Positions 1-11,929 of a stretch of 11,929 nucleotides of DNA are shown here, piece by piece; position 1 is the first letter of the stretch, and the number at the start of each line of letters is the position of its first letter. The notes beneath the pieces are model-generated. The model was not told the DNA's origin, did no database searches, and saw nothing but the letters and a program-made list of their open reading frames with translations. Origin of the DNA: a virus (taxonomy: Duplodnaviria; Heunggongvirae; Uroviricota; Caudoviricetes; Schitoviridae); the IMG/VR virus record IMGVR_UViG_2974569618_000001, positions 1-11,929 of that record, one strand, 5' to 3'. Both the position numbers and the translations under genes were made by a program.

Positions 1-21
1 AGGTAGATGATGGCGATAGTG

Positions 22-42
22 CCATACCATGCGTAAGCATGG
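22..42 (-). promoter_or_regulatory. Putative N4-type virion RNA polymerase (vRNAP) hairpin promoter firing leftward (+ strand is template)
   Basis: + strand reads CC-ATA-C-CATGC-GTAA-GCATG-G. N4 template-strand promoters as I recall them read CC-ATA-A-GTTGC-GAA-GCAAC (P1) and CC-AAA-A-GAAGC-GGA-GCTTC (P2). Spacing is the same: +1/+2 = CC (23/22), -8 G (31), -9 C (32), G..A loop closed by C-G. The loop is 4 nt instead of 3. Confidence 0.6.
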
Positions 43-43
43 G

Positions 44-119
44 GTGTACCTGTGTAGTGTGTATAAGAGTGTACCGGGGGGGTACTCTATATAAGATGGG
101 TGCTCCGCCCCAGTGTACC
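44..119 (+). repeat. Three direct copies of GTGTACC (44-50, 69-75, 113-119)
   Basis: Read directly from the sequence. Copies 2 and 3 extend to AGTGTACC; copy 2 supplies the left arm of the GTACC-GGGGG-GGTAC inverted repeat (71-85). Confidence 0.7.
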
Positions 120-386
120 CTGCATTGAGACTTACCTATCATCCGATTTCGTAAAAAATATGCAGAATATATTTATAGAAAACTTATCTCTAATGCTTGA
201 TAGAAAAGAAGCTGGTTTACGTCCAGCAACGGTTGAATCAACAAGGCTATAAGGTGCTACGTCAGGGGGTGTAGATGATTGGAGTTGTCCTTGTCTTCAA
301 CTGGTTCCGTTAACTCACGGTTTCCTTGAGGGCACGTCTATCAAAGCAATCAGGAATAGGGGGGTCTTTCCATTTCCATAAGGATA

Positions 387-415
387 TAGACATAAGACTT
401 AAAATACCCTATAAA
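387..415 (+). promoter_or_regulatory. Candidate sigma70-type late promoter
   Basis: TAGACA (387-392), 17-nt spacer, TATAAA (410-415), just upstream of the first RBS (AGGAG 432-436). N4 late genes use host sigma70 RNAP. The -10 lacks the conserved final T, so support is moderate. Confidence 0.4.
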
Positions 416-443
416 GGTGGACACAATCAACAGGAGATTTATG

Positions 444-761
444 ATGACTAATCGTGTAACCATTGAAGATGTACAGGCAGCTATCAAGTCAGAGACTTAC
501 ACCTTACTGCCTGATGGCAGAACCACTATCTGTCAGCTTACTCTGGACAATGATTTCACTGTCGATGGCAAGAGTGCTTGTGTTGCCAAAGAGAACTACG
601 ATGAAGCACTGGGTAACAAGTATGCCCGTGAGAATGCTGTCGAGAAAGTGTGGCAGTTCTTAGGCTTCCGTCTGGCAGATACACTGCACAAAGAGAAGCA
701 GGCCAATGATTTGGTGGCTGGCCTCAGTGATGAGGGTGACTGCGAAGGCTGCAAGATTTAA
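444..761 (+). CDS. N4 Gp49 / Sf6 gene 66 family protein (Phage_gp49_66-like), 105 aa
   Basis: Motif TTICQLTLDNDFTVDGKSACVAKENYDEALGNKYARENAVEKVWQFLGFRL fits the family pattern (C.L.L.NGF.V.G.SACV...NFD...G...A...A...IW.LEGY.L). RBS AGGAG at 432-436 favours ATG 444 (or 441) over GTG 417. Confidence 0.8.
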   Translation: MTNRVTIEDVQAAIKSETYTLLPDGRTTICQLTLDNDFTVDGKSACVAKENYDEALGNKYARENAVEKVWQFLGFRLADTLHKEKQANDLVAGLSDEGDCEGCKI

Positions 762-784
762 CCTTTCTTTTCTGGTTCAAATTC

Positions 785-810
785 AGGGGAGCTTAGTGCT
801 CCCTTTATTA
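785..810 (+). terminator. Rho-independent terminator-like hairpin
   Basis: GGGAGC (787-792), loop TTAGT, GCTCCC (798-803), then TTTATTA. The U-tract is short. Confidence 0.6.
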
Positions 811-824
811 TATGAGGTGAACGT

Positions 825-1511
825 ATGCTCTCTCTTGATCTGGTTCAGAAGGCTGTGCCTGCAAACCTCAAGAATGGTATTACCCAACAGTTGGTGGACA
901 ACATCAACAACATTAGCACTGACCCACTGACAGCACAGACTATCCGTGAGAACTTCATTTCTTATACGGGTGTGCTCAAGGATGGTAAGTTCAGCACAGA
1001 GCAGTACATGAATGCTGTGGCGTTTGTCAGCTACAAGCTGATGGGCCATACGAACCAAGAGGCTTATTTCAAGACCTTCCCTCAGCGTTATCAGGATATG
1101 GTGTCTGCCGGGAAGACCCAGAAAGAAATCTCTTCGTTTGTTTCTATCTATGCCAAAGGTAAGTTGGTGAACCTGATCATGGAACAGTCATTGGTGCCGA
1201 CATGGGTACTCAATGCTGACATTTTCCAGAAGGCCATCAACACTCAGGCTGAAATTATGAATGACGTTGGGGTGAACCCTCGTGACCGTGTGGCAGCAGC
1301 CAACTCCATTCTGACCCATCTGGCAAAACCAAAAGAGGTAGGGCCACTACTGAACATTGATATGCGCGAGCAGTCTGGTGTCAACGAACTTAGAGATTTG
1401 TTAGGGAAGCTGGCAACTAAACAGGTTGAGGCCATTGGTAATGGTGAGTCTGTTCAGGAGATTGCTGGTTCTCGTTTGTTCGAAGGAGAAAAGGTCGATG
1501 GCTCTAATTAA
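825..1511 (+). CDS. terS: N4 gp69-like protein, probable terminase small subunit, 228 aa
   Basis: RBS GAGGTG upstream; immediately precedes and overlaps terL by 14 nt; size and position match the conserved N4-like gene before terL. Function is inferred from synteny. Confidence 0.7.
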   Translation: MLSLDLVQKAVPANLKNGITQQLVDNINNISTDPLTAQTIRENFISYTGVLKDGKFSTEQYMNAVAFVSYKLMGHTNQEAYFKTFPQRYQDMVSAGKTQKEISSFVSIYAKGKLVNLIMEQSLVPTWVLNADIFQKAINTQAEIMNDVGVNPRDRVAAANSILTHLAKPKEVGPLLNIDMREQSGVNELRDLLGKLATKQVEAIGNGESVQEIAGSRLFEGEKVDGSN

Positions 1512-3096
1512 ACAAGACATTGATAAGTGGCTCGATGAGGTCAGTTACTCCTATCTGAATAGTGGTAGCTATGTTCCCTCAGAGTTCTCTCTTATCTTCA
1601 TGAACTTTATTAAGCTGGTGAACGGCGTAGAAGGTGAAAGTCATAAAACACCTCCTGTGCATCTCGCCATGCTTGATAAGGTTGTTGGCCCTTCGCAGTA
1701 TATCGCTAACTTATGTTTCCGTGGTGCAGCCAAAACCACTCTGTTCATGGAATACTTTGCGCCTTTTGTTGCAGTGTTTCACGGTTTACCGGGATTCGGT
1801 GAGATTGACGGTATGATCTACGTCTCTGACTCAATGGATAACGGTGTTAAGTCTGCTCGAAAGAACATTGAGTTCCGATATAACCAAAGTGAGTTCCTTC
1901 AAGAGTGGCTTCCTTATGCGAAGTTCACTGACAACTACATTGAGTTCAAGAACAAAGAAGGGAAGATGTTCGGCATCAAGATGTTTGGTGCTAAAACAGG
2001 TCTTCGTGGTACGAAGATCTTTGGTAAACGTCCTACTCTCTGTGTACTCGATGACTTAGTAAGTGATGATGACTCCAAATCTAAGGTATCAATGGAGGCC
2101 ATTAAGGATACTGTCTATAAAGGTGTGAACCACGCATTGGATCCAACGAAGCGTAAGGTCATCTTCAACGGTACTCCGTTTAACAAAGACGACATTCTCA
2201 TTGAGGCAGTTGAATCTGGTGCATGGGATGTGAACGTCTGGCCTGTCTGTGAGAAGTTCCCTTGCTCTCGTGAAGAGTTTCAGGGTGCATGGGAAGATCG
2301 TTTCTCATATGACTATGTAAGTGAGCAATACGACATGGCAGTGAAGACAGGTAAACTGTCTGCCTTCATGCAAGAACTGATGTTGCGTATTACCTCAGAG
2401 GAAGAACGTCTGGTTCAGGATTCTGAGATTCGGTGGTACTCACGGGCAACTCTTCTCAAGAACGCATCCACATTCAACTACTATATCACCACTGACTTTG
2501 CCACCAGCGGTAAGCAAAAGAGTGACTACTCGGTTATCTTTGTCTGGGCGTACAACGCTAATGGTGACTGGTTCTGGGTAGACGGCATCTGTGCTCGTCA
2601 GACGATGGACAAAAACATCGATGACCTGTTCAGGCTGACCCAGAAATATAAACCTGTCAGTGTGGGTATTGAAACTACGGGCCAGCAGAATGCGTTTATC
2701 CAATGGCTGCAACGAGAAATGATGGGGCGTAATGTCTGGTTCAACTTTGCCAGTTCAGCCAAATCAGGTGAGCCGGGTATCCGTCCAGTAGTGGATAAGC
2801 TGCAACGATTTAATGTCGTTGTTCCGTGGTTCAAAGCAGGTAAAATGTATTTCCCGGAAGAGATGAAAACCAGCAACATTATTGGGATGATCATCGAGCA
2901 AATCCGTCTGGCAACCCAGTCAGGTTTGAAAGGGAAAAACGATGACTGTATCGATGGCATTTCGATGCTTGGTTATCTCAATCCGTGGAAACCTTCTGAG
3001 TCTGCTCCTGTGTCTGAGCATGATCAGTCAGATGTGTACGAACTGTTTGAGGGGCCAGAACAAAACTCATCCGGGCTTTCCTCTTATATAGTGTGA
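1498..3096 (+). CDS. terL: Terminase large subunit (N4 gp68-like), 532 aa
   Basis: Walker A-like CFRGAAKTT, Walker B LCVLDDL, motif-III region FNGTPF, RNase H-like nuclease acids ITTDFATS..DYSV and NDDCIDGIS. Start moved from 1426 to ATG 1498 (AAGGAG RBS, overlap with terS end). Confidence 0.95.
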   Translation: MALIKQDIDKWLDEVSYSYLNSGSYVPSEFSLIFMNFIKLVNGVEGESHKTPPVHLAMLDKVVGPSQYIANLCFRGAAKTTLFMEYFAPFVAVFHGLPGFGEIDGMIYVSDSMDNGVKSARKNIEFRYNQSEFLQEWLPYAKFTDNYIEFKNKEGKMFGIKMFGAKTGLRGTKIFGKRPTLCVLDDLVSDDDSKSKVSMEAIKDTVYKGVNHALDPTKRKVIFNGTPFNKDDILIEAVESGAWDVNVWPVCEKFPCSREEFQGAWEDRFSYDYVSEQYDMAVKTGKLSAFMQELMLRITSEEERLVQDSEIRWYSRATLLKNASTFNYYITTDFATSGKQKSDYSVIFVWAYNANGDWFWVDGICARQTMDKNIDDLFRLTQKYKPVSVGIETTGQQNAFIQWLQREMMGRNVWFNFASSAKSGEPGIRPVVDKLQRFNVVVPWFKAGKMYFPEEMKTSNIIGMIIEQIRLATQSGLKGKNDDCIDGISMLGYLNPWKPSESAPVSEHDQSDVYELFEGPEQNSSGLSSYIV

Positions 3097-3103
3097 GGCA
3101 CAC

Positions 3104-3808
3104 ATGAATGTAGAGCAGTTATTTACCAATCTGTCTTACGGAGAACTGAGTAACCTCTCACTCTCTGCTGATGGTTCCGGTAGTATTCAGGAAGAACGAC
3201 AACCTCGGATCATTCTCTATGCAAATGAGGGTTTGCTCAGGTTGTACAGTCGGTTCCTCCTGCTTGAAAAAGATATTCTGATCGAGATGGTGGAGCACAT
3301 TACCAACTACCATTTCTTGAAGAAATTTACGGAATCTCATCACGATCCAGAGTCGGAACACTACCCGTACATCAAGGATCTGATCGGGGAACCATACGAA
3401 GAGGACATGCTGAAAATCTTGGCTGTGTATAACAGTCTTGGTCAGAAGGTTCCTTTAAACGATAATGAACGAATCGACTCAGTGTTTACTCCACGCGACA
3501 AGTTACTGCAAGTACCTCGTCCGATTGACGGAGCATCACTCAGCGTGTTGTATCAAGCGAAGCACCCAACGCTAACCATCGATGACTTGCAGCAGGAGAT
3601 CATTCTTCCTGTGGTTCTCGAAGGAGCCTTAACCGCTTATATCGCTTACAAGGTGTTCAGTCACATGAACACAGACGTTAGCTCTCAGAAAGCTCAAGAG
3701 CACATCCAAATCTTCAATAACATCTGTGATGAAGTCGAGGATCGTGACATGGTTGGTTCCAGTGTAGCCACTACAAACGCTCGTTTCGGTAAACGAGGAT
3801 GGGTATAA
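3104..3808 (+). CDS. N4 gp67-like virion structural protein (probable head-tail adaptor), 234 aa
   Basis: RBS GAGG. N-terminus LFTNLSYGELSNLSLS and ANEGLLRLYSRFLL match my recollection of N4 gp67 homologues; position directly after terL is the conserved gp67 slot. Confidence 0.8.
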   Translation: MNVEQLFTNLSYGELSNLSLSADGSGSIQEERQPRIILYANEGLLRLYSRFLLLEKDILIEMVEHITNYHFLKKFTESHHDPESEHYPYIKDLIGEPYEEDMLKILAVYNSLGQKVPLNDNERIDSVFTPRDKLLQVPRPIDGASLSVLYQAKHPTLTIDDLQQEIILPVVLEGALTAYIAYKVFSHMNTDVSSQKAQEHIQIFNNICDEVEDRDMVGSSVATTNARFGKRGWV

Positions 3809-3812
3809 AAAT

Positions 3813-4901
3813 ATGCGTACAGTAAATGATCCTTACGGTGGCTACTCGCCACTGGTAGACAAGATGATTGGCAATGCCTACGAAGTTGTTAAGCACGTAG
3901 CCATGAATCTGATGTACGTCCGTCATGTATCGGGCAATCTGGAACAAGTTTTTACGGTTGCAACGAACATTCAGGACGTGCTGACCAATGCTCGCAATAT
4001 GGATTACATCCAGAAAGTCTCTGCCATTGATGCAGAGGTTATTGCACTTGGTTCCAACATTAATGGTCTGGTGAATCTTGCCAATAACCTCGCTGCTCTG
4101 CTGCATCTGAACAGCAATATGGCTCCACTGATTTCACTGGAACCAAAGGCAGATGATCTGGTTAATCTGAACAGTCACCAGACTGAGTACATGGCTGTCT
4201 ATAACTCGCTGTCTGACATTAAGGCCGTTAGTGCTGACCTGACTGCTATCAACGCAATCTACGCCAACATCAATGACCTCGTGAAAGTCGGTAAAAATGC
4301 TGATGCTCTGGTTGAAGTGGCTAATGCTCTGCCAGCTATTACTGCCGTGCAGCAGAAACTGGATATTCTGGAAACCATTTACACCAATCTGGCCCAGATC
4401 ACCCCAGTTGGTCAGAATATCGAGAAGGTAATTGCTGTCTCTGATGACCTGACCAACATCAATGCAGTGAATGCAAAGCTGACAGAGATTGAAGCAGTGG
4501 CTCAGTCCATCGCTAATGTCAATTCTGTTGCTGGTTCTCTGACAAAGGTGAATCAGGTTGCTGACGACTTGGCTAACATCAACGCTGTAGCAGCAAAATT
4601 GCCTCAGCTTGATACCATTGCCAATAAAGTAGACAACCTGCAATCACAGAAAACTGTCACAGGTACTGCACCTGCTGTTTCAGCGTCAGTAAACGTGGCA
4701 ATGGGTACGGCAGCAACAACCGTGAAAGCAGTAAACGTGAAAGTAACAGGTACTGACGGGACAGTTTACTTCCCATCTGCATCGACTTTCAGTTATTCCC
4801 TTACTGGTTCCAATCTGGTTGTGACTTCTGCTGCATCTGCTCCAGCAAATATGGTCGGTGGTGCTATCGAAGCCCTGATCTCCTACACTCCGGCATCATA
4901 A
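3813..4901 (+). CDS. gp66-like tail fibre/appendage: virion anchor, long decad-repeat helical stalk, small beta-rich C-terminal domain, 362 aa
   Basis: N-terminal LVDKMIGNAYEVVKHVA resembles N4-like fibre anchors. Residues 21-280 show strict 10-residue periodicity. The last ~80 aa are Thr/Val/Ser/Ala-rich with beta-strand patterns. No enzymatic domain seen. Confidence 0.75.
   Translation: MRTVNDPYGGYSPLVDKMIGNAYEVVKHVAMNLMYVRHVSGNLEQVFTVATNIQDVLTNARNMDYIQKVSAIDAEVIALGSNINGLVNLANNLAALLHLNSNMAPLISLEPKADDLVNLNSHQTEYMAVYNSLSDIKAVSADLTAINAIYANINDLVKVGKNADALVEVANALPAITAVQQKLDILETIYTNLAQITPVGQNIEKVIAVSDDLTNINAVNAKLTEIEAVAQSIANVNSVAGSLTKVNQVADDLANINAVAAKLPQLDTIANKVDNLQSQKTVTGTAPAVSASVNVAMGTAATTVKAVNVKVTGTDGTVYFPSASTFSYSLTGSNLVVTSAASAPANMVGGAIEALISYTPAS
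3873..4652 (+). repeat. 26 tandem 10-aa repeats (consensus x-[N/D/K/S]-L-x-x-[I/V/L]-x-x-V-A)
   Basis: For example DDLTNINAVN/AKLTEIEAVA/QSIANVNSVA/GSLTKVNQVA/DDLANINAVA/AKLPQLDTIA; hydrophobic residues at positions 3, 6 and 9 with no register break. Confidence 0.85.
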
Positions 4902-4910
4902 GGAAAGGAA

Positions 4911-7094
4911 ATGAGGGATAAACCGTATCTGCCACAGCACTACTTCCAATTGGATGATCAGTGGTCAAGCCGTGTAATCCAAAACCACGGTGGGCAACCA
5001 GCGAAAAAAGTCTCGTTGGTTCCTGATGCTATTACTTTTGGGTCTGTAACGGCTGGACAGCTCTCAGTTGTCCAAAAAGCAACGTTAATGAACACGGGTT
5101 ACTTGCCTTTACTGGTTCGAAAAGTCCGTTTAGCTGGTGATTTTGTTGTGTCTCACAACCTGCCAATTAGCGGAGTAATCGAACCAAACGAAAGTATTGA
5201 GTTCCAGCTACAATTCGCACCTCAACGTGTGGGTATCACAACTGGTGGTCTGTATATCGACACCGATGCACACGGGGAAAACGAATATGTGGCGTTACTG
5301 GGTAACGGTCTGGCATCCGGTGTTGGTGTGGCTGTGCTCTCTACTACTTCACTGTCTTTTGGTAGTGTAAAAATCAACACTACCTCTGCTGTGAAACCCG
5401 TAGTTGTGACCAACTCAGGCACAGAAGACCTCACAATCAGTAAAATTGCAGTTACTGGTGAGTTTGCTGCTGCATTGAGTACCCCGGTTGTACTGGGTGC
5501 AGGTCAAAGTGCCACTATCAACGTGACATTTAGCCCAACCTCAGTGGGATCCAAGAACAGTACACTGACGATTACCCATGATGGTAACGGTGGTAACACT
5601 GTTTCCTTATCTGGTTCAGGTACGACAGGTACTGGTCTGCCAACTCTCTCTATCAGCAATGCTGTTATTGAGACTTCAATCGGATCAGCCAGTGTATCGG
5701 CCTCAACTCAGTCACTGTCATTTGCAGACACGACTGTTGGTAATAGCAGTGATGCTCAATCTGTCACCCTGACTAACTCAGGAGACGGATCAGCAAAGAT
5801 AGTTGACCTGTCATTCCCCACCAGCAACTTCAAGTTTGCATCTGGAAGTGCTGCGACAGGTACTGTCATTCCTGCTGGGGGTTCTGTCACAGTGAAATTG
5901 GTATTCTCTCCGGCTTCTGCCGGGGAGGTTACTGGCACACTGTTGATTTCTACCGATGCAGCAGTTGGCAATGAGTTTTCAATTGCTCTTGCTGGTTCTG
6001 CCATTGCTGCTCCAGTTGTGATGAAGCGACTGAGTACCAGTGGTACGAAATTTGTCGATGAAGACGGTAAAGAAGTACGTCTGAAATCGGTCAACTGGTT
6101 CGGTATGGAAGATGAGAACTACACTCCGCATGGAACATGGATCCGTCCGTGGAAAGCCATCATTGATGACATTGCTTCAATGGGCTTCAACTGTATTCGC
6201 CTTGCCTTTTCTGGTTCTGCGACAACAGCCGGAAGGACTCCACCAGCTTCTGCTATTAACAGCGAAGCAAATCCCGATTTGGTAGGTCTGACTTCGTTAG
6301 CCATTCTGGATAAATATGTCGATTACTGTACTCAGAAGGGTGTTTACATTGTTCTTGATCACCATCGCCGTACTGCTGGCTCCGGGGGTACTGACGGCTC
6401 TCCTGTTTCATCGGACTACACCTTAGCAATGTGGAAAGCATCATGGGCAGTCATGGCAAATCGCTATGGTAACAACCCAACTGTTGTGGGTGCAGACTTG
6501 CACAACGAACCACACCAACTGGATTGGCCTACATGGAACAGTTATGCCACCGAAGTGGGTAACGCTACTCTGGCTATTGCTCCTGATTGGATCATGTTTG
6601 TTCAGGGTGTTGGAACCAGTACAGATGGAACCAATAACTGGTGGGGTGGTGCTCTGAAAGATGTTGCCACGACTCCGGTTGTGCTGAACAAGGCTAATCG
6701 TCTGGCGTACTCGCCTCACGAATACGGTCAATCAGTGGGTTCACAGGATTGGCTTGCTACTGACAGCAAACCAGTCACCAACTACCCAAATAACCTGCCT
6801 GCTATCTGGGATAAGAACTGGGGCTTTATCGTTAAAAACGGAATTGCTCCTATCTGGATCGGTGAGTTTGGTGGTAAATTTGGGGTCGATGGTTCTGGTG
6901 CAGTTAACCAGCCAAATGGCATTGTTGAAAAACAGTGGGTACAGACTCTGGTCAGCTATATGAACACGAATAAAATGTCATTTGCTTACTGGTCTTATAA
7001 CCCTAACAGCACAGACACAGGTGGACTGATCCAAGATGATTGGGTAACTCATCAGACTGTCAAACTCAACTTACTGGCCCCTGCTCTGGCCTAA
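4911..7094 (+). CDS. Modular GH5 (subfamily 1-like) endoglucanase: N-terminal extension, 3 ASH/choice-of-anchor-D Ig-like domains, GH5 catalytic domain, 727 aa
   Basis: GH5 motifs RLKSVNWFGME, LDHHR, DLHNEPH (acid/base E533, nt 6507), YSPHEYGQSV, IWIGEFGG (nucleophile E652, nt 6864), WSYNPNSTDTGG parallel Acidothermus E1-type Cel5A. Three repeats of L.F..V..G..S....L.N.G...L.I......F......[LI]..G.S....V.F.P...G...G.L.I.......V.L.G.G at aa ~34-133, ~139-237, ~260-364. No signal peptide. RBS AAGGAAAGGA. Confidence 0.93.
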   Translation: MRDKPYLPQHYFQLDDQWSSRVIQNHGGQPAKKVSLVPDAITFGSVTAGQLSVVQKATLMNTGYLPLLVRKVRLAGDFVVSHNLPISGVIEPNESIEFQLQFAPQRVGITTGGLYIDTDAHGENEYVALLGNGLASGVGVAVLSTTSLSFGSVKINTTSAVKPVVVTNSGTEDLTISKIAVTGEFAAALSTPVVLGAGQSATINVTFSPTSVGSKNSTLTITHDGNGGNTVSLSGSGTTGTGLPTLSISNAVIETSIGSASVSASTQSLSFADTTVGNSSDAQSVTLTNSGDGSAKIVDLSFPTSNFKFASGSAATGTVIPAGGSVTVKLVFSPASAGEVTGTLLISTDAAVGNEFSIALAGSAIAAPVVMKRLSTSGTKFVDEDGKEVRLKSVNWFGMEDENYTPHGTWIRPWKAIIDDIASMGFNCIRLAFSGSATTAGRTPPASAINSEANPDLVGLTSLAILDKYVDYCTQKGVYIVLDHHRRTAGSGGTDGSPVSSDYTLAMWKASWAVMANRYGNNPTVVGADLHNEPHQLDWPTWNSYATEVGNATLAIAPDWIMFVQGVGTSTDGTNNWWGGALKDVATTPVVLNKANRLAYSPHEYGQSVGSQDWLATDSKPVTNYPNNLPAIWDKNWGFIVKNGIAPIWIGEFGGKFGVDGSGAVNQPNGIVEKQWVQTLVSYMNTNKMSFAYWSYNPNSTDTGGLIQDDWVTHQTVKLNLLAPALA

Positions 7095-7107
7095 TAAGGA
7101 AACTTAA

Positions 7108-9516
7108 ATGCGACAAGCACGTTTCACCGTAACGCTGTCACAAGCGTCTACGGATACCGTGACTGTCGATTGGAAAACTGTCGATGGATCGGCAGTTTCA
7201 CCAAGCGACTATACGGCAGCAAACGGTACTCTCACTTTTAAACCGGGTGAGACTACCAAAGATATTCTTGTAGCCGTTCGTGATTACGTCGAAGGGTCTA
7301 CTGATGAAGGTTTTACTGTTGAGTTAAGCAATGCATCGAATGCCAATCTTGATACCAAGACAGCAGGTTCCGCTGTCATTCCGGGTGATCCGGCTGCTCT
7401 GCCTTCTTATTTGGATCGTTTCAATACGGTCTATGAAGCAGTGCATAAAACCGACAACGGTTACTTCGGCCCACCATCGGGTAATGCTGCCCGTACCGTT
7501 CCGTACCACTGTATCGAAACTCTGATCTGCGAAGCACCAGACTGGGGTCATCAAACAGTATCGGAAACCGCTTCTTTCTATGTTGGTCTGGAAGCGTGGC
7601 ACGGTCTGCTGAATAACAAGTGGGATGGGTACAATCTGGCATGGTCAGTCATTGATCAGGTCTATGTGCCGAAAACTACGAACCAGCCAACGAAGGTATA
7701 TAAGCCAGCTAAACCTGCTGACTATACCCCAGAAGGTGATACACCATCTGCTTACCCAACTTTGGGTGATTCCACTGCTGCCGTGGGTATCGATCCACTG
7801 GCTGATGAACTGGAGTCCACCTACGGTAATAAGAGTGTATATCTCATGCACTGGATCATCGATGTTGATGGTGCATACGGTTTCCACAATGGTGATGGTT
7901 CCAAGTTCAACGTGTTCATCAACACGTACCAACGTGGTTTGCAGGAATCTGCATGGGAAACCATTCCTCAGCCTGAGTGGGAAGATTGGCAGTTTGGTAA
8001 TACCTATGGCTTCCTGCCTCTGTTTACTCAGGGTCTGCCTTTGTATCCAGCAGCAGAAAACGAATACGGTAAGCAATGGCGTTATACCTGTGCTCCCGAT
8101 GCAGAAGCTCGTGCAATTCAATGGGCATTCTGGGCGCAGAAATGGGCTAATGCATCTGGCAAAGCAGGATCAATTTCTGTTGCTACTGCCAATGCTAAAA
8201 AGATGGGTGACTATCTTCGTTATTGCCTGTTTGACAAGTATTTCCGTCAGATTGGCCCTAACCGTGCTCAGGGTTCCAACAACGATGATCCATACACAGC
8301 ATGTCACTACCTGATTTCATGGTATGTGTCATGGGGTGGTCAGGTTCCTACCTCTACGGGTGATGCTTACTGGGGATTCCGTGTTGGTTCCTCTGAGGCA
8401 CACTTTGGTTATCAGGCTCCTGATATTGCCTACTTCATGGCAAAAGAAGGCGGTGCATTTACACCTCTTTCTGGATCAGCATCTGATATTTGGCTGGGTT
8501 CTCTGTACCGTCAACTTGAGATGATCCGTTGGTTGCAGACCGAAGCTGGCCCAATTGCTGGTGGTGTGTCGAACTCATGGCATGGTCGTTATGAAACACC
8601 TAACGATGGTCGTGATAACTTCACGTTTTATGGTATGCATTATACCTATGCACCAGTCTGGCATGATCCACCGTCAAACAACTGGTTTGGTTTCCAAGCA
8701 TGGGGCTTAGGCCGTGTTGCTGACCTGTACAAAGAGGTAGCACTTAAAACTGATACTCTCAGCGTCAATGTTCGTAACATGTGTGGTGTGATTCTGGATC
8801 GCTTCCTTAACTGGATCCTCGACAATGTTAAAGTCGATGTGACAGCAGGAACCATGACACTGCCTGATACCCTGAACTGGACTTCACCGACTCAGGTTGC
8901 TGGTACTACCAACAGAGCCAACCTTGAAGGTGTGTATGAATACATTCCTTCTATGGCATGGGATGGAACAGGCGATACCACAACGTTCTGGAGCAACTCA
9001 AGTGTGCCAAACCCAACACTGAAATTCCGTGTTGTGGCTACAGGTAAAGACTTAGGCGTTGCTTCTTCATTGGCTCTTTTGATGCTGCATCACGCTGCTG
9101 CTAAACGAGACATGAATCAGTTTGACGCTAAACTCGGAGTAGGCAATCATACTGCTCGTGAGGTCTACCAGATGGCTAAAGATCTGGTTGACGTTATGTG
9201 GGGTCAGCATTGGGATGGTGTTGGTATCTGCCGTGAAGAGGGTCGTTCGGACTACAACCGTTATAACCAACAGTTGTATGTTCCACCGAACTATCAGGGA
9301 ACGATGCCTAACGGTGATCCAATCAATGCCAGTTCGACGTTTATTTCTATTCGTAGCTGGCAGAAAGCTGATCCAGATTGGCCTAAGATTCAGGCTTATC
9401 TCGATAGTCAGACGGAAAGCAGTATTCCTAAGTTCACATACCATCGTTTCTGGGGTCAATGTGAGTATGCCATGTGTTGTGGTGCTTTATACCACTACTT
9501 TAATGACATAAACTAA
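7108..9516 (+). CDS. GH48 cellulase (processive exo-/endo-glucanase family) with an N-terminal Calx-beta domain lacking its first strand, 802 aa
   Basis: GH48 motifs EAPDWGHQTVSE (catalytic acid E153, nt 7564), YQRGLQESAWETIPQP, QWRYTCAPDAEARAIQ (putative base D331, nt 8098), FDKYFRQIG, HYLISWYVSWGG, SSEAHFGYQ, WHDPPSNNWFGFQAW, FTYHRFWGQ. Residues 1-94 match Calx-beta (FTVTLS..STDTVTVDWKTVDGSA....DY....GTLTFKPGETTKDI.V.V.D......DEGFTVELSN). No signal peptide. RBS AAGGA. Confidence 0.95.
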   Translation: MRQARFTVTLSQASTDTVTVDWKTVDGSAVSPSDYTAANGTLTFKPGETTKDILVAVRDYVEGSTDEGFTVELSNASNANLDTKTAGSAVIPGDPAALPSYLDRFNTVYEAVHKTDNGYFGPPSGNAARTVPYHCIETLICEAPDWGHQTVSETASFYVGLEAWHGLLNNKWDGYNLAWSVIDQVYVPKTTNQPTKVYKPAKPADYTPEGDTPSAYPTLGDSTAAVGIDPLADELESTYGNKSVYLMHWIIDVDGAYGFHNGDGSKFNVFINTYQRGLQESAWETIPQPEWEDWQFGNTYGFLPLFTQGLPLYPAAENEYGKQWRYTCAPDAEARAIQWAFWAQKWANASGKAGSISVATANAKKMGDYLRYCLFDKYFRQIGPNRAQGSNNDDPYTACHYLISWYVSWGGQVPTSTGDAYWGFRVGSSEAHFGYQAPDIAYFMAKEGGAFTPLSGSASDIWLGSLYRQLEMIRWLQTEAGPIAGGVSNSWHGRYETPNDGRDNFTFYGMHYTYAPVWHDPPSNNWFGFQAWGLGRVADLYKEVALKTDTLSVNVRNMCGVILDRFLNWILDNVKVDVTAGTMTLPDTLNWTSPTQVAGTTNRANLEGVYEYIPSMAWDGTGDTTTFWSNSSVPNPTLKFRVVATGKDLGVASSLALLMLHHAAAKRDMNQFDAKLGVGNHTAREVYQMAKDLVDVMWGQHWDGVGICREEGRSDYNRYNQQLYVPPNYQGTMPNGDPINASSTFISIRSWQKADPDWPKIQAYLDSQTESSIPKFTYHRFWGQCEYAMCCGALYHYFNDIN

Positions 9517-9532
9517 GGCCGTTCCGACACAC

Positions 9533-9560
9533 AGGGGAGTCTGAATAGACTCCCTTTTTT
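9533..9560 (+). terminator. Strong Rho-independent terminator
   Basis: GGGAGTCT (9535-9542), loop GAAT, AGACTCCC (9547-9554), followed by TTTTTT (9555-9560). Confidence 0.9.
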
Positions 9561-9584
9561 ATTACCTGCGAGGAAGCAATAGAG

Positions 9585-9920
9585 ATGGCGGATAATATTG
9601 AAGTCCATGTGCAAATGGCCCGTCTTGAGGAACGCCTAAAGATTATTACTGAGGGTTTAGCTCAAGATAGAGAATCTCGAAAACAACAATATGAAGCGAC
9701 AGCAGAGATTACTAAGATCCTTGCTTCACTTGATAATCGTGTTGGTGTCGTAGAAAAGGGCTTCGCTGAGTCTGCCCCGACTATTGAAGAGTTCATTACC
9801 ATCAAACACCGTGTTGTTGGTGCTGGTCTTGCTGGGAAGTGGATCTGGGCGGGTGCAGGAGCAATCCTCACTTTCTTGTTTACGTTCCGAAAAGAGATTA
9901 TTGCATGGCTTTCAAAGTGA
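9585..9920 (+). CDS. Lysis-cassette membrane protein (holin or antiholin; N4 gp63-like position), 111 aa
   Basis: N-terminal amphipathic/coiled-coil region plus one C-terminal hydrophobic segment (VVGAGLAGKWIWAGAGAILTFLFTF) followed by RKE. First gene of the cassette. Holin versus antiholin cannot be decided from sequence. Confidence 0.6.
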   Translation: MADNIEVHVQMARLEERLKIITEGLAQDRESRKQQYEATAEITKILASLDNRVGVVEKGFAESAPTIEEFITIKHRVVGAGLAGKWIWAGAGAILTFLFTFRKEIIAWLSK

Positions 9921-10150
9921 TAGAAAATTGGAAACGAGCACACAAGTTCGGATCTATTTGGTGGGCAATTGCAGGTGTAATTGCAATGCTTCTGGAGATA
10001 TTCAATAACACTTGGTTCAGCTTACCAAAAGACATTCAGGATAAGATCCCTAATGCTCCTTTGGTAAGCCTGCTCATGTTTATTGCGATCATCATCTCCC
10101 GTGTAATCGTTTGGGTTCGCCCGGAGAAAGAAGACGATGGCTCTAAGTAA
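9905..10150 (+). CDS. Putative two-TM holin-family protein, 81 aa
   Basis: Start reassigned to ATG 9905 (overlaps previous gene by 16 nt). Basic-aromatic N-terminus VIENWKRAHKFGSIW is typical of a phage holin family; TM1 ~aa 15-33, TM2 ~aa 51-71; charged C-tail RPEKEDDGSK; directly precedes the endolysin. Confidence 0.7.
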   Translation: MAFKVIENWKRAHKFGSIWWAIAGVIAMLLEIFNNTWFSLPKDIQDKIPNAPLVSLLMFIAIIISRVIVWVRPEKEDDGSK

Positions 10151-10742
10151 AACAGCAAAAGTTGGTGGTGGTATTGGCTCAGTTGCTGCTGCCATTATTG
10201 CAGCAATTTTTGCAGTCGAAGGTGGGTACGTGAATGACCCAAAGGATCCGGGTGGTGAAACCAATCATGGTGTCACCAAAGTAGTTGCCCAACAAAATGG
10301 ATATACAGGGGCAATGAAGGATCTAACGCTTGATATGGCTCAGTCCATTTACTACAAAGACTACATTGAGAAACCGGGATTCGTTCCTCTTTTAACAGTC
10401 GCCCCAGTTGTGACACAGAAATTGGTAGATTCTGGCGTAAACACTGGGCCTGCTCGTCCTTCTCGTTGGTTCCAAGAGTCACTTAACTCTCTGAACCGGA
10501 ATGGCAAAGACTACCCTCAAATTAATGTTGATGGTAAAGTTGGCTCAGGAACAATTGCAGCCTACAAATCTCTGCAACGAGTACGTGGAAATGTTAAAGC
10601 CTGCGAACTGATGATCAAGCTACTTGATGCACAGCAAGCCAGCTACTACATGAGCCTGACTAACCTCAAGCAGTACACGGTTGGTTGGATTGATAACCGT
10701 ATTGGGAATATCCCAATCAGCCGTTGCCAAGAGGAAAAGTAA
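10137..10742 (+). CDS. SAR endolysin, GH108 N-acetylmuramidase (N4 gp61-like) with C-terminal peptidoglycan-binding region, 201 aa
   Basis: EGGYVNDPKDPGGETNHGVT is the GH108 signature (E28). A Gly/Ala-rich weakly hydrophobic segment (aa 9-27, VGGGIGSVAAAIIAAIFAV) after basic residues is a signal-arrest-release domain. VDGKVGSGT PG-binding-type motif. Confidence 0.92.
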   Translation: MALSKTAKVGGGIGSVAAAIIAAIFAVEGGYVNDPKDPGGETNHGVTKVVAQQNGYTGAMKDLTLDMAQSIYYKDYIEKPGFVPLLTVAPVVTQKLVDSGVNTGPARPSRWFQESLNSLNRNGKDYPQINVDGKVGSGTIAAYKSLQRVRGNVKACELMIKLLDAQQASYYMSLTNLKQYTVGWIDNRIGNIPISRCQEEK

Positions 10743-10746
10743 AATT

Positions 10747-11304
10747 ATGGGCCTGAGCAATTCTGTTAGAAACGCAATACTGGCCCTGTTCCTTCTTCTG
10801 GTTCTATTCGGTGAATACAAACTGTGGTCTGCTGGTGTAGACCACGGTTCTAATGCAGTCACCAAACTGTGGAACCAAGACAAAGAGAAACAGGCTAAAG
10901 CTCTGCAAGATGCCAAAGACAAAAATGCTTTGCTGATGGCAGATAACCGTTCACTCTCTGAGAAACTTACCCATGACCTTGCCAAACAAGAAACTGCTCA
11001 TCAAGTCGAGCTTGCTCGTGCTAAGTCTGAGTTTGATAACCGCTTGCTCCAGTCAGAAAAAAGAGCCAGCGTATATAAACGAATGTCCGAAGCTGGATCC
11101 ACTGAGTGTGGAAATCTCGCAAGCCATGCAGCCGAACTCGACAGATCTCTTGAACAGGGCAGACAATTGGTACGTGAACTCAGGGAAACTCTTAGATACC
11201 GTGACGAGCAACTGAGATCAGTAAGTGCTAAATTACTCGCTGACAGAAACCTACTAACTTCGGATGATGCAGATGGAAGACAAAATTCTACCTCGCACAA
11301 GTGA
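10747..11304 (+). CDS. Rz: i-spanin (Rz-like), 185 aa
   Basis: N-terminal TM (AILALFLLLVLFG), long periplasmic coiled-coil, one periplasmic Cys (C121), follows the endolysin and contains the o-spanin. Start ATG 10747 (GAGGA RBS) rather than TTG 10681. Confidence 0.88.
   Translation: MGLSNSVRNAILALFLLLVLFGEYKLWSAGVDHGSNAVTKLWNQDKEKQAKALQDAKDKNALLMADNRSLSEKLTHDLAKQETAHQVELARAKSEFDNRLLQSEKRASVYKRMSEAGSTECGNLASHAAELDRSLEQGRQLVRELRETLRYRDEQLRSVSAKLLADRNLLTSDDADGRQNSTSHK
10973..11215 (+). CDS. Rz1: o-spanin lipoprotein (Rz1-like), 80 aa, embedded in the +1 frame of Rz
   Basis: Signal peptide MTLPNKKLLIKSSLLVLSLSL, lipobox ITA|C25, Ser at +2 (outer-membrane sorting), Pro-containing periplasmic part with a second Cys (C38). 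Fully nested in the i-spanin gene as in lambda Rz/Rz1. Confidence 0.9.
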   Translation: MTLPNKKLLIKSSLLVLSLSLITACSSQKKEPAYINECPKLDPLSVEISQAMQPNSTDLLNRADNWYVNSGKLLDTVTSN

Positions 11305-11929
11305 AGAGGCTACTGAGAAAAAGTTAACTGACTGGAGTAACGAACCAACGTTACGTCAGTTGAAAGTTGACTTTGATCAGTCAAAGCCCGCACATGATGC
11401 TCAGGTTGGTCGTATTAAACACTGGCAGGATCTGCTCAATGTAACCGGAGCACAGAAGCCACCAAAGGTAAAAGGCCGTTCTTCGGTACAGCCAAAGTTG
11501 GTGAAGCGTCAGGCTGAATGGCGTTACTCAGCACTGACAGAACCTTTTCTTGGTTCCAACAAGCTGTTTAATGTCAGCCCGGTAACGTTTGAAGATGCTC
11601 CTGCTGCTGTTCAAAATGAACTCGTTCTGAACTGGCAGTTTCGCACCAAACTGAACCGTGTGAGTCTGATCGATACTTTCGTCCGAACCACAGTGGATGA
11701 AGGTACTTCTATTGCTCGTATTGGCTGGAAACGTGTCACTGTTAAAGTGAAAAAAGAAGTCCCTGTGTACTCGTATTATCAAATCGAGCAACAGGAACAA
11801 CTTCAACAGTTACAGCAAGCAATCGAACTGGAACAAGACAACCCACGAATGTTCCATGAGCAAGCACCACCTGAACTGGCTGCTGCACTGGAATATTACA
11901 AAGAATCTGGTGTTCCTGTTTATGCTGAA
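11273..11929 (+). CDS. Portal protein (N4 gp59-like), 5' part only; runs off the window
   Basis: Manual translation, open to the window end: MEDKILPRTSEEATEKKLTDWSNEPTLRQLKVDFDQSKPAHDAQVGRIKHWQDLLNVTGAQKPPKVKGRSSVQPKLVKRQAEWRYSALTEPFLGS... The LTDW.NEPT and GRSSVQPKL..QAEWRYSAL.EPFL motifs match N4-like portals. In-frame ATGs at 11264, 11267 and 11273; overlaps the Rz 3' end. Confidence 0.92.
   Translation, partial: MEDKILPRTSEEATEKKLTDWSNEPTLRQLKVDFDQSKPAHDAQVGRIKHWQDLLNVTGAQKPPKVKGRSSVQPKLVKRQAEWRYSALTEPFLGSNKLFNVSPVTFEDAPAAVQNELVLNWQFRTKLNRVSLIDTFVRTTVDEGTSIARIGWKRVTVKVKKEVPVYSYYQIEQQEQLQQLQQAIELEQDNPRMFHEQAPPELAAALEYYKESGVPVYAE

Follow-up and report, generated by a model that had tools for sequence, protein, structure and literature searches.

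In chaperone-usher pili such as Fim, Pap and Caf1, an immunoglobulin (Ig)-like sandwich lacks an edge strand, and a peptide belonging to another polypeptide fills the gap non-covalently, so that the subunits are stably joined. Among tailed phages, the podophages GP4, VP1 and A1002 carry fibre dimers held on a "rope" by beta-sheet augmentation, together with a split nozzle (PMC13730344). The closest described relative of the locus presented here is found in Erwinia phage S6, which needs bacterial cellulose to infect and whose proteins gp095 (GH5, an experimentally verified cellulase) and gp094 (Calx-beta and GH48, with the catalytic acid assigned to E155) have been published; according to the authors, where the two proteins sit on the particle remains to be shown (PMC9544554). 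The DNA analysed here, hereafter the window, is the whole 11,929-nt stretch (11.9 kb) at the start of a 75.9-kb phage genome of the Schitoviridae (IMG/VR record IMGVR_UViG_2974569618_000001, positions 1 to 11,929). It holds the orthologues of both S6 genes at the same position of an N4-like genome, encoding a GH5 protein (P0001, orthologue of gp095) and, immediately downstream, a GH48 protein (P0002). The Calx-beta label on gp094 has been published, but the domain was treated there as complete, and neither its missing strand nor the orphan strand of gp095 was noted (PMC9544554).

In the window, these two proteins contain two parts of a single Calx-beta domain. An isolated strand A, hereafter the plug, is found in the GH5 protein, while the GH48 protein begins with the remainder of the domain, hereafter the socket. 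Each half is unique in the genome and the two co-occur across phage lineages. From the sequences and the structure models, we consider it probable that the halves join by non-covalent strand complementation, which would dock GH48 onto a virion-anchored GH5 protein. We found no description of such a split Calx-beta joint in the literature on donor strands, on strand complementation, or on Calx domains with tail fibres or tailspikes.

The two halves in the window

The plug, LPTLSISNAVIET, corresponds to residues 243-255 of the GH5 protein (nt 5637..5675, plus strand). It is bordered on either side by short Gly/Ser/Thr linkers and sits between two ASH-type Ig domains, without any Calx-beta body after it according to both Pfam and the translation. 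The first-pass annotation, made by a model from the letters of the DNA and its translated open reading frames, had already described an isolated strand-A segment between ASH2 and ASH3, and the coordinates it gave proved exact.

The resemblance of this segment to a Calx-beta strand A was scored with a matrix of 13 columns, derived from strand A of 722 distinct complete cis Calx-beta repeats of bacterial multi-repeat proteins. The matrix contains no phage sequences, and its input consists of the residues located directly 5' of the part of each repeat that can be aligned to the N-terminal domain of GH48. The consensus of these 722 repeats is ..PPTLSIDDVSVTEGNSG, followed by strand B. With this matrix, nt 5637 ranks first among the 89,044 six-frame windows of the genome, with 14.5 bits versus 12.3 for the runner-up, and its score has p = 0.005 against composition-preserving shuffles (open frames of the window, stop-to-stop, at least 60 aa). 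The likeness of LPTLSISNAVIET to strand A is confirmed to be more than chance. A profile of phage plugs (A4) likewise retrieves a single match in the genome, at 5631-5681 (E = 6e-8). In the monomer model of residues 140-368 of the GH5 protein (predicted template-modelling score 0.50), the ASH domains reach a predicted local distance difference test score (pLDDT) above 90, while residues 240-259 score about 53 and display no secondary structure. Therefore, the plug, unstructured between two well-folded ASH domains, belongs to neither of its neighbours.

The GH48 protein (nt 7108-9516) starts at MRQARFTVTLS, and its residues 1-94 (7108..7389, plus strand) form the socket, a Calx-beta domain without strand A identified with Pfam, AlphaFold2 and VIA-align. 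The Pfam Calx-beta family (PF03160) matches residues 4-86 at profile positions 24-111 of 119, with 52.2 bits for a cut-off of 27, so that the first ~23 positions of the profile are absent; in a genome-wide scan, the only Calx-beta match is again this one (7114-7365, profile 23-111, 56.8 bits). The AlphaFold2 model of residues 1-100, based on an alignment of 12 sequences, shows six strands with a mean pLDDT of 85.6. VIA-align matches this model to all solved types of Calx-beta (Z 11.5-12.3), with aligned ranges starting at residue 387 of NCX1 CBD1, 457 of CALX CBD1, 1005 of integrin beta4 and 518 of NCX1 CBD2, which we take to lie about 15-17 residues into each solved Calx-beta domain, just past strand A. 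A profile search of the PDB sequences aligned query position 15 to residue 45 of 2dpk_A and retrieved no phage Calx-beta structure. With regard to an acidic Ca2+-binding cluster like that of NCX1 CBD1, the DDD motif that ends the bacterial repeats is, by eye, replaced by IPGDP in the window socket. The socket thus passes the Pfam threshold of the family, but the complete seven-strand A-G sandwich is not found in one polypeptide.

The gene junction (7092..7107, plus strand) contains two consecutive stop codons (TAA TAA), an AAGGAAA ribosome-binding site and an in-frame TAA at 7105-7107, directly before the GH48 start. Because of this last stop, the GH48 frame cannot be extended upstream. The partial Pfam match, the six-strand model and the in-frame stop all agree with the earlier claim that GH48 starts abruptly at strand B and that the first Calx-beta strand is absent. 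The two elements of donor-strand complementation, an acceptor lacking one strand and a donor strand on another polypeptide, are both present here, as the socket and the first-ranked orphan strand A of the genome.

Distribution among phages and gene setting

Among the N4-like relatives, a peptide is kept at the plug position in Fifi450, S6, Pastis and the metagenomic contigs L008-L010, L012 and L017 (with forms such as TISISNAVIEA, TINVTDGVLET, ALSVSDGVIKS, IIYIQDGILEA and SISVSAGVIEP), and the next gene in each of them begins at strand B (M-R/Q-Q-A-R/A-F...). This argues against a possibility raised in the first-pass annotation, namely that the peptide is not conserved in homologues retaining the truncated Calx-beta domain. 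Indeed, the plug and socket are co-conserved although the flanking ASH domains drop to 36-40% identity, and the domain following the plug in S6 looks, by eye, unlike the ASH3 of the window. In the N4-like contig L021, a 281-aa protein with the arrangement ASH-plug-ASH contains no enzyme (L021:5144-5989) and has no recognisable role except carrying the plug. It is followed by a socket gene (L021:6001-8919) encoding a 972-aa protein that is not a GH48, whose sole Pfam match is the N-terminal truncated Calx-beta domain. Concerning gene starts in this group, the annotated GH5 start of Fifi450 gp6 (L002:2756-5014) adds ~25 residues (MRLLLLLLQVV...) overlapping the preceding gene, and the conserved N-terminus MAKKPYL... 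suggests that an internal ATG is the true start.

Outside the N4-like phages, the pair is present in Henunavirus myophages, in Lastavirus-like podophages and in a P2-like prophage, and therefore moves between phage types. In the Henunavirus myophages Hena1 and pEp_SNUABM_01, a baseplate-type N-terminal domain precedes the plug, one ASH domain and GH5, and the socket-GH48 gene comes next. After it lies a gene for a 117-aa protein, annotated as hypothetical or putative tail fibre (Hena1 gp202, L006:7131-7484; pEp_SNUABM_01 gp073, L005:7533-7886), which consists of a socket, ~5 residues and a C-terminal plug, a layout that in gp202 copies the junction of tandem Calx-beta repeats. The tandem Calx domains of NCX1 CBD12 are arranged head-to-tail, and with such a geometry the gp202 linker would be too short for its own plug to complete the socket in cis. 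Proteins of this type could, from their sequence, act as chain extenders between a plug and another socket. In the P2-like prophage L023, the GH5 domain comes after two plugs in tandem (18.1 and 15.2 bits), with socket-GH48 downstream.

In the Lastavirus-like phages and proviruses (LASTA, Parlo, Pavtok, L004/L013 and L020), two different tail proteins begin with a socket, and a protein of ~120 aa adjoining one of these socket genes ends in a plug (..ASISDAVIGGQ, ..VISVSNAVIVEA and ..RLSVSSVAVEDI). At the N-terminus of their GH5 scaffolds lies Gp77, a fibre-tail adaptor domain described in phage GP4, which fits a virion-anchored scaffold. LASTA, Parlo and Pavtok (L014, L015 and L016) each encode two socket-headed tail proteins, and the single plug found in each genome forms the C-terminal end of the small protein encoded after the second socket gene. 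The GH5 proteins of these three phages have no plug, and their fibre-type socket keeps the EG/NG loop. The 1026-aa tail protein of a 60.6-kb IMG/VR provirus (L013:760-3840, minus strand) is composed of Gp77, ASH, two tandem plugs, ASH, GH5 and a C-terminal alginate-lyase domain (PF08787). Because it contains both GH5 and PF08787, this one scaffold bears two different polysaccharide-degrading enzymes. Conversely, the 1397-aa protein P0267 combines socket-GH48 with a C-terminal GDSL esterase/lipase domain, and a docked payload can therefore itself carry two enzymes.

The truncation is shared by all the phage domains of this class that we examined. In six phage genomes, every Calx-beta domain (11 of 11) starts at profile position 17-29, and those whose genes were read are N-terminal in their proteins. 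Other viral proteins (L024, L025, L028 and others) contain complete cis Calx-beta domains, and the truncation is therefore specific to the N-terminal Calx-beta class.

Regarding the remaining features of the two window proteins, the open reading frame, its translation, Pfam and PHROG delineate P0001 (727 aa; 4911..7094, plus strand) as an anchor motif, ASH1, ASH2, the orphan strand, ASH3 and the GH5 domain. Pfam recovers Cellulase (8e-49) and three ASH/HYDIN-type Ig domains, and PHROG assigns it to hydrolase and tail protein. Its 35 N-terminal residues, with the motif DKPY...SSRVI (4911..5015, plus strand), probably anchor the protein to the virion, judging from their conservation and their likeness to the L021 scaffold: within the N-terminal half, few 10-residue blocks are as well conserved as residues 11-20 (0.76 pairwise identity), and the L021 scaffold, which has no enzyme, starts with a similar motif. 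ASH2 (residues 144-237; 5340..5621) and ASH3 (residues 262-365; 5694..6005), both on the plus strand, were identified with Pfam and modelled by AlphaFold2 with pLDDT >90. The GH5 catalytic domain (residues 382-700; 6054..7010, plus strand) matches PF00150 over the whole profile (1-272 of 272, 167 bits), and the motifs HNEPH and IGEFGG, containing NEP and GEF, are present in the translation. In P0002, the GH48 catalytic domain (residues 101-802, with the stop codon; 7408..9516, plus strand) matches PF02011 with 701 bits and shares the acid motif SETASF with S6 gp094.

The two cellulase genes are 98.8% identical to those of Erwinia phage Fifi051. They are embedded in the gene order of an N4-like podophage, where a terminase, an SU10-type adaptor-like virion protein and a 362-aa fibre-like protein precede GH5 and GH48, and a small membrane protein, a holin, a GH108 endolysin, a spanin and the portal follow. 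The 362-aa protein, encoded directly 5' of GH5 (3813-4901, plus strand), shows PHROG appendage and tail-fibre matches in its N-terminal and middle parts and has no enzymatic domain; it may be a stalk or adaptor bearing the GH5 scaffold. Just 5' of the holin, a 111-aa protein (9585-9920, plus strand) with a hydrophobic C-terminal segment matches phrog_5211, of unknown function. Related records label this product "putative tail-length tape measure protein", a function that is not plausible at 111 aa in a podophage, and a membrane protein of the lysis cassette is more likely. We had considered whether this open reading frame carries a plug, as small proteins do in Parlo and Hena1, but it encodes a different, membrane-type protein and this candidate was ruled out.

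A possible joint and its alternatives

Based on the sequences, the models and comparative genomics, we infer binding between the two halves, a complex on the tail and joint action of the two enzymes. The GH5 protein would be a virion-anchored scaffold-enzyme, displaying its 13-residue plug on a flexible linker between two ASH domains. The gene located 13 nt downstream, probably co-translated, would provide GH48 with a sandwich lacking strand A as its first 94 residues. The plug would insert at the open edge between socket strands B and G, completing the fold non-covalently and thereby hanging the processive GH48 on the endoglucanase, and the virion would in this manner carry both cellulases to digest the cellulose layer of the host.

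Several observations weigh against this docking. The conservation of the plug is similar to that of neighbouring domain cores, with a mean pairwise identity of 0.57 compared to 0.51 for residues 1-370, and it ranks only 72nd of 358 windows along the protein; this rank overturned an impression, gained from alignment A1, that no other part of the N-terminal half is as well conserved as the plug. AlphaFold2 folds the socket alone (pLDDT 85.6), which neither proves nor excludes its stability without the plug. With the generic strand-A matrix, the peptides found at the homologous position in Fifi450, S6, L009, L010 and L012 do not reach significance. Plugs and sockets are equal in number in the window, Fifi450, S6, L020 and L021, but unequal in the IMG/VR provirus (3:2), in L023 (2:1 within the locus) and in LASTA, Parlo and Pavtok (1 found for 2 sockets). 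A general rule of equal numbers thus fails in these genomes and holds as an argument for the window only. In addition, no plug was seen within the 10-12 kb examined of the socket contigs L022, L034, L043 and L049, and we came across no proteomic study of virions that locates GH48 on the particle.

Part of this evidence fits the idea that the peptide is a leftover of domain shuffling, now a mere interdomain linker without any interaction, while the socket is stable alone or packed on the GH48 barrel and GH48 is soluble, released at lysis or attached in another way. The unexceptional conservation of the plug, the confident six-strand model obtained without it, the socket-bearing phages with no detectable plug nearby and the failure to find proteomics placing GH48 on virions are all in favour of such a relic. 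Nevertheless, a relic would not survive the replacement of its flanking domains, as in S6, Hena1, L021 and L023, nor would it reappear at the C-termini of unrelated small tail proteins beside socket genes or be the single best strand-A match of the genome. Moreover, the same truncation point in 11 of 11 phage Calx-beta domains examined indicates a selected architecture, and we regard a relic as unlikely. Both halves could also be real interaction elements with partners other than each other, the plug being an intersubunit beta-strand that oligomerises the GH5 spike and the socket edge docking another tail protein (the fibre encoded at 3813-4901 or an adaptor). Tail spikes are usually oligomers, and other partners would be conceivable where, as in some genomes, plug and socket counts are unequal. 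For the podophages GP4, VP1 and A1002, augmentation of beta-sheets by rope or nozzle proteins has been documented (PMC13730344). However, this genome contains a single plug and a single socket, the strand absent from the socket is exactly the one that the plug matches, and in every lineage their genes are at most one or two genes apart; separate partners are, in our view, quite improbable.

The adjacency of the two genes, with a gap of 13 nt, could further suggest that programmed readthrough or frameshifting joins GH5 and GH48 at the protein level, the split being merely apparent. However, with the plug 470 residues ahead of the GH5 stop, a fusion would not place it beside strand B. The junction also combines two consecutive TAA with a third TAA in the GH48 frame. 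The frame offset between the genes, 1 in the window, is 0, 1 or 2 at the junctions of homologues, whose gaps range between 9 and 15 nt, and this variation shows that no readthrough or frameshift fusion is conserved. The chance of a fusion is therefore negligible, and we consider it ruled out by the sequence and by the variable offsets, in line with the earlier judgement that genes in different frames and separated by TAATAA are unlikely to be covalently fused.

Beyond the window, the docking of GH48 by a plug may be one instance of a wider arrangement. We see an even chance that the split Calx-beta is a general, portable and non-covalent tag-and-catcher of tailed phages, in which the plugs of a scaffold would capture any socket-headed payload. 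The scaffolds would range from Ig-domain stalks and baseplate proteins to small tail proteins, and the payloads would comprise GH48, other enzymes and fibres, while tandem plugs and socket-plus-plug adaptors would allow branched or chained appendages. On this reading, podophages, myophages and prophages would swap the enzymes that degrade surface sugars in large part by exchanging such modules. If the joint itself is real, at least four phage lineages mount interchangeable enzymes by a natural split-domain docking pair, which would explain the mosaic evolution of tail modules. For the S6-like fire-blight phages, the attachment of the second cellulase would receive a precise answer, with 13 residues on GH5 and 94 on GH48. 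Annotation would also improve, as "Calx-beta" now suggests calcium binding and the small plug proteins are called tail fibre or hypothetical, and protein engineering would gain a compact docking pair.

As for the origin of the split, the first-pass annotation had proposed that ASH3-GH5, together with a stop and a ribosome-binding site, was inserted into an ancestral ASH-ASH-Calx-beta-GH48 gene. We searched the GH48 protein against 1.84 billion representatives and examined the best 150 of 32,908 matches, many of which are giant multi-Calx proteins. No unsplit form, be it a complete Calx-beta or ASH-ASH-Calx fused to GH48, was found among these 150, although its absence is not proven thereby. 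Four divergent Calx+GH48 proteins were present among the matches examined, and all four start at strand B, one of them with an added GDSL esterase. Bacterial GH48s carry CBM2, PKD or Ig domains instead of Calx-beta; P0371 and P0368, considered as internal Calx-GH48 fusions, turned out to be CBM2-linker-GH48 proteins without a Calx-beta match. An insertion into an unsplit gene thus appears unnecessary and unsupported, and the plug and socket behave as modules that move independently of each other and are older than this gene pair. Therefore, from the original interpretation we retain complementation in trans by the GH5 strand A, in view of the location of the halves on separate proteins and of the comparative support (co-conservation, other scaffolds and other payloads), but not the insertion origin.

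Relation to known docking systems

As in the chaperone-usher pili, the missing edge strand would be supplied by another polypeptide, which here presumably inserts in the same way. However, in pilins the absent strand is the C-terminal G strand and an N-terminal extension serves as donor, whereas here it is the N-terminal A strand that is missing and the donor is internal or C-terminal. The fold also differs, being Calx-beta, and the purpose would be the mounting of enzymes on a virion. No chaperone or usher families were found in the Pfam scan of the window proteins. By analogy, the phage pair would work like donor-strand complementation without being a member of the chaperone-usher type, and it would extend this principle from bacterial pili to virus assembly, with another fold and another missing strand.

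The podophages GP4, VP1 and A1002 resemble the present case in that strands of a scaffold augment or complete the beta-sheets of separately encoded appendage proteins, and in the tandem docking sites on one scaffold, comparable to the tandem plugs of L013 and L023. However, their fibres are 140-170-aa dimers of another fold and the word "Calx" does not occur in the paper (PMC13730344), whereas the payloads here are large glycoside hydrolases. A further resemblance to GP4 is the Gp77 adaptor domain, detected with Pfam on the GH5 scaffolds of L013 and L020 and also in P0171/L011. In the window proteins, Pfam revealed no Gp77 domain, which sets this locus apart from a GP4-type fibre system.

The synergy of GH5 and GH48 is well established for cellulosomes, and the first-pass annotation had accordingly described the locus as a "mini-cellulosome". 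The comparison is valid as an analogy, i.e., as a resemblance in outcome: an endoglucanase and a processive GH48 would be brought together on one scaffold through a small non-catalytic docking pair. Pfam detected neither cohesin nor dockerin in P0001 and P0002 (E <= 0.01). In addition, cellulosomes rely on the binding of two folded domains, whereas here one split domain would be completed, on a scaffold that is itself an enzyme and would be part of a virus particle.

Finally, a parallel exists in engineered split Ig-like domains such as SpyTag/SpyCatcher, in which a short peptide completes the truncated beta-sandwich of another protein, providing a portable docking pair. SpyTag was engineered from the CnaB2 domain and forms a covalent isopeptide bond, whereas the plug and socket are a natural split of a different fold, Calx-beta, and their joint is presumably non-covalent.

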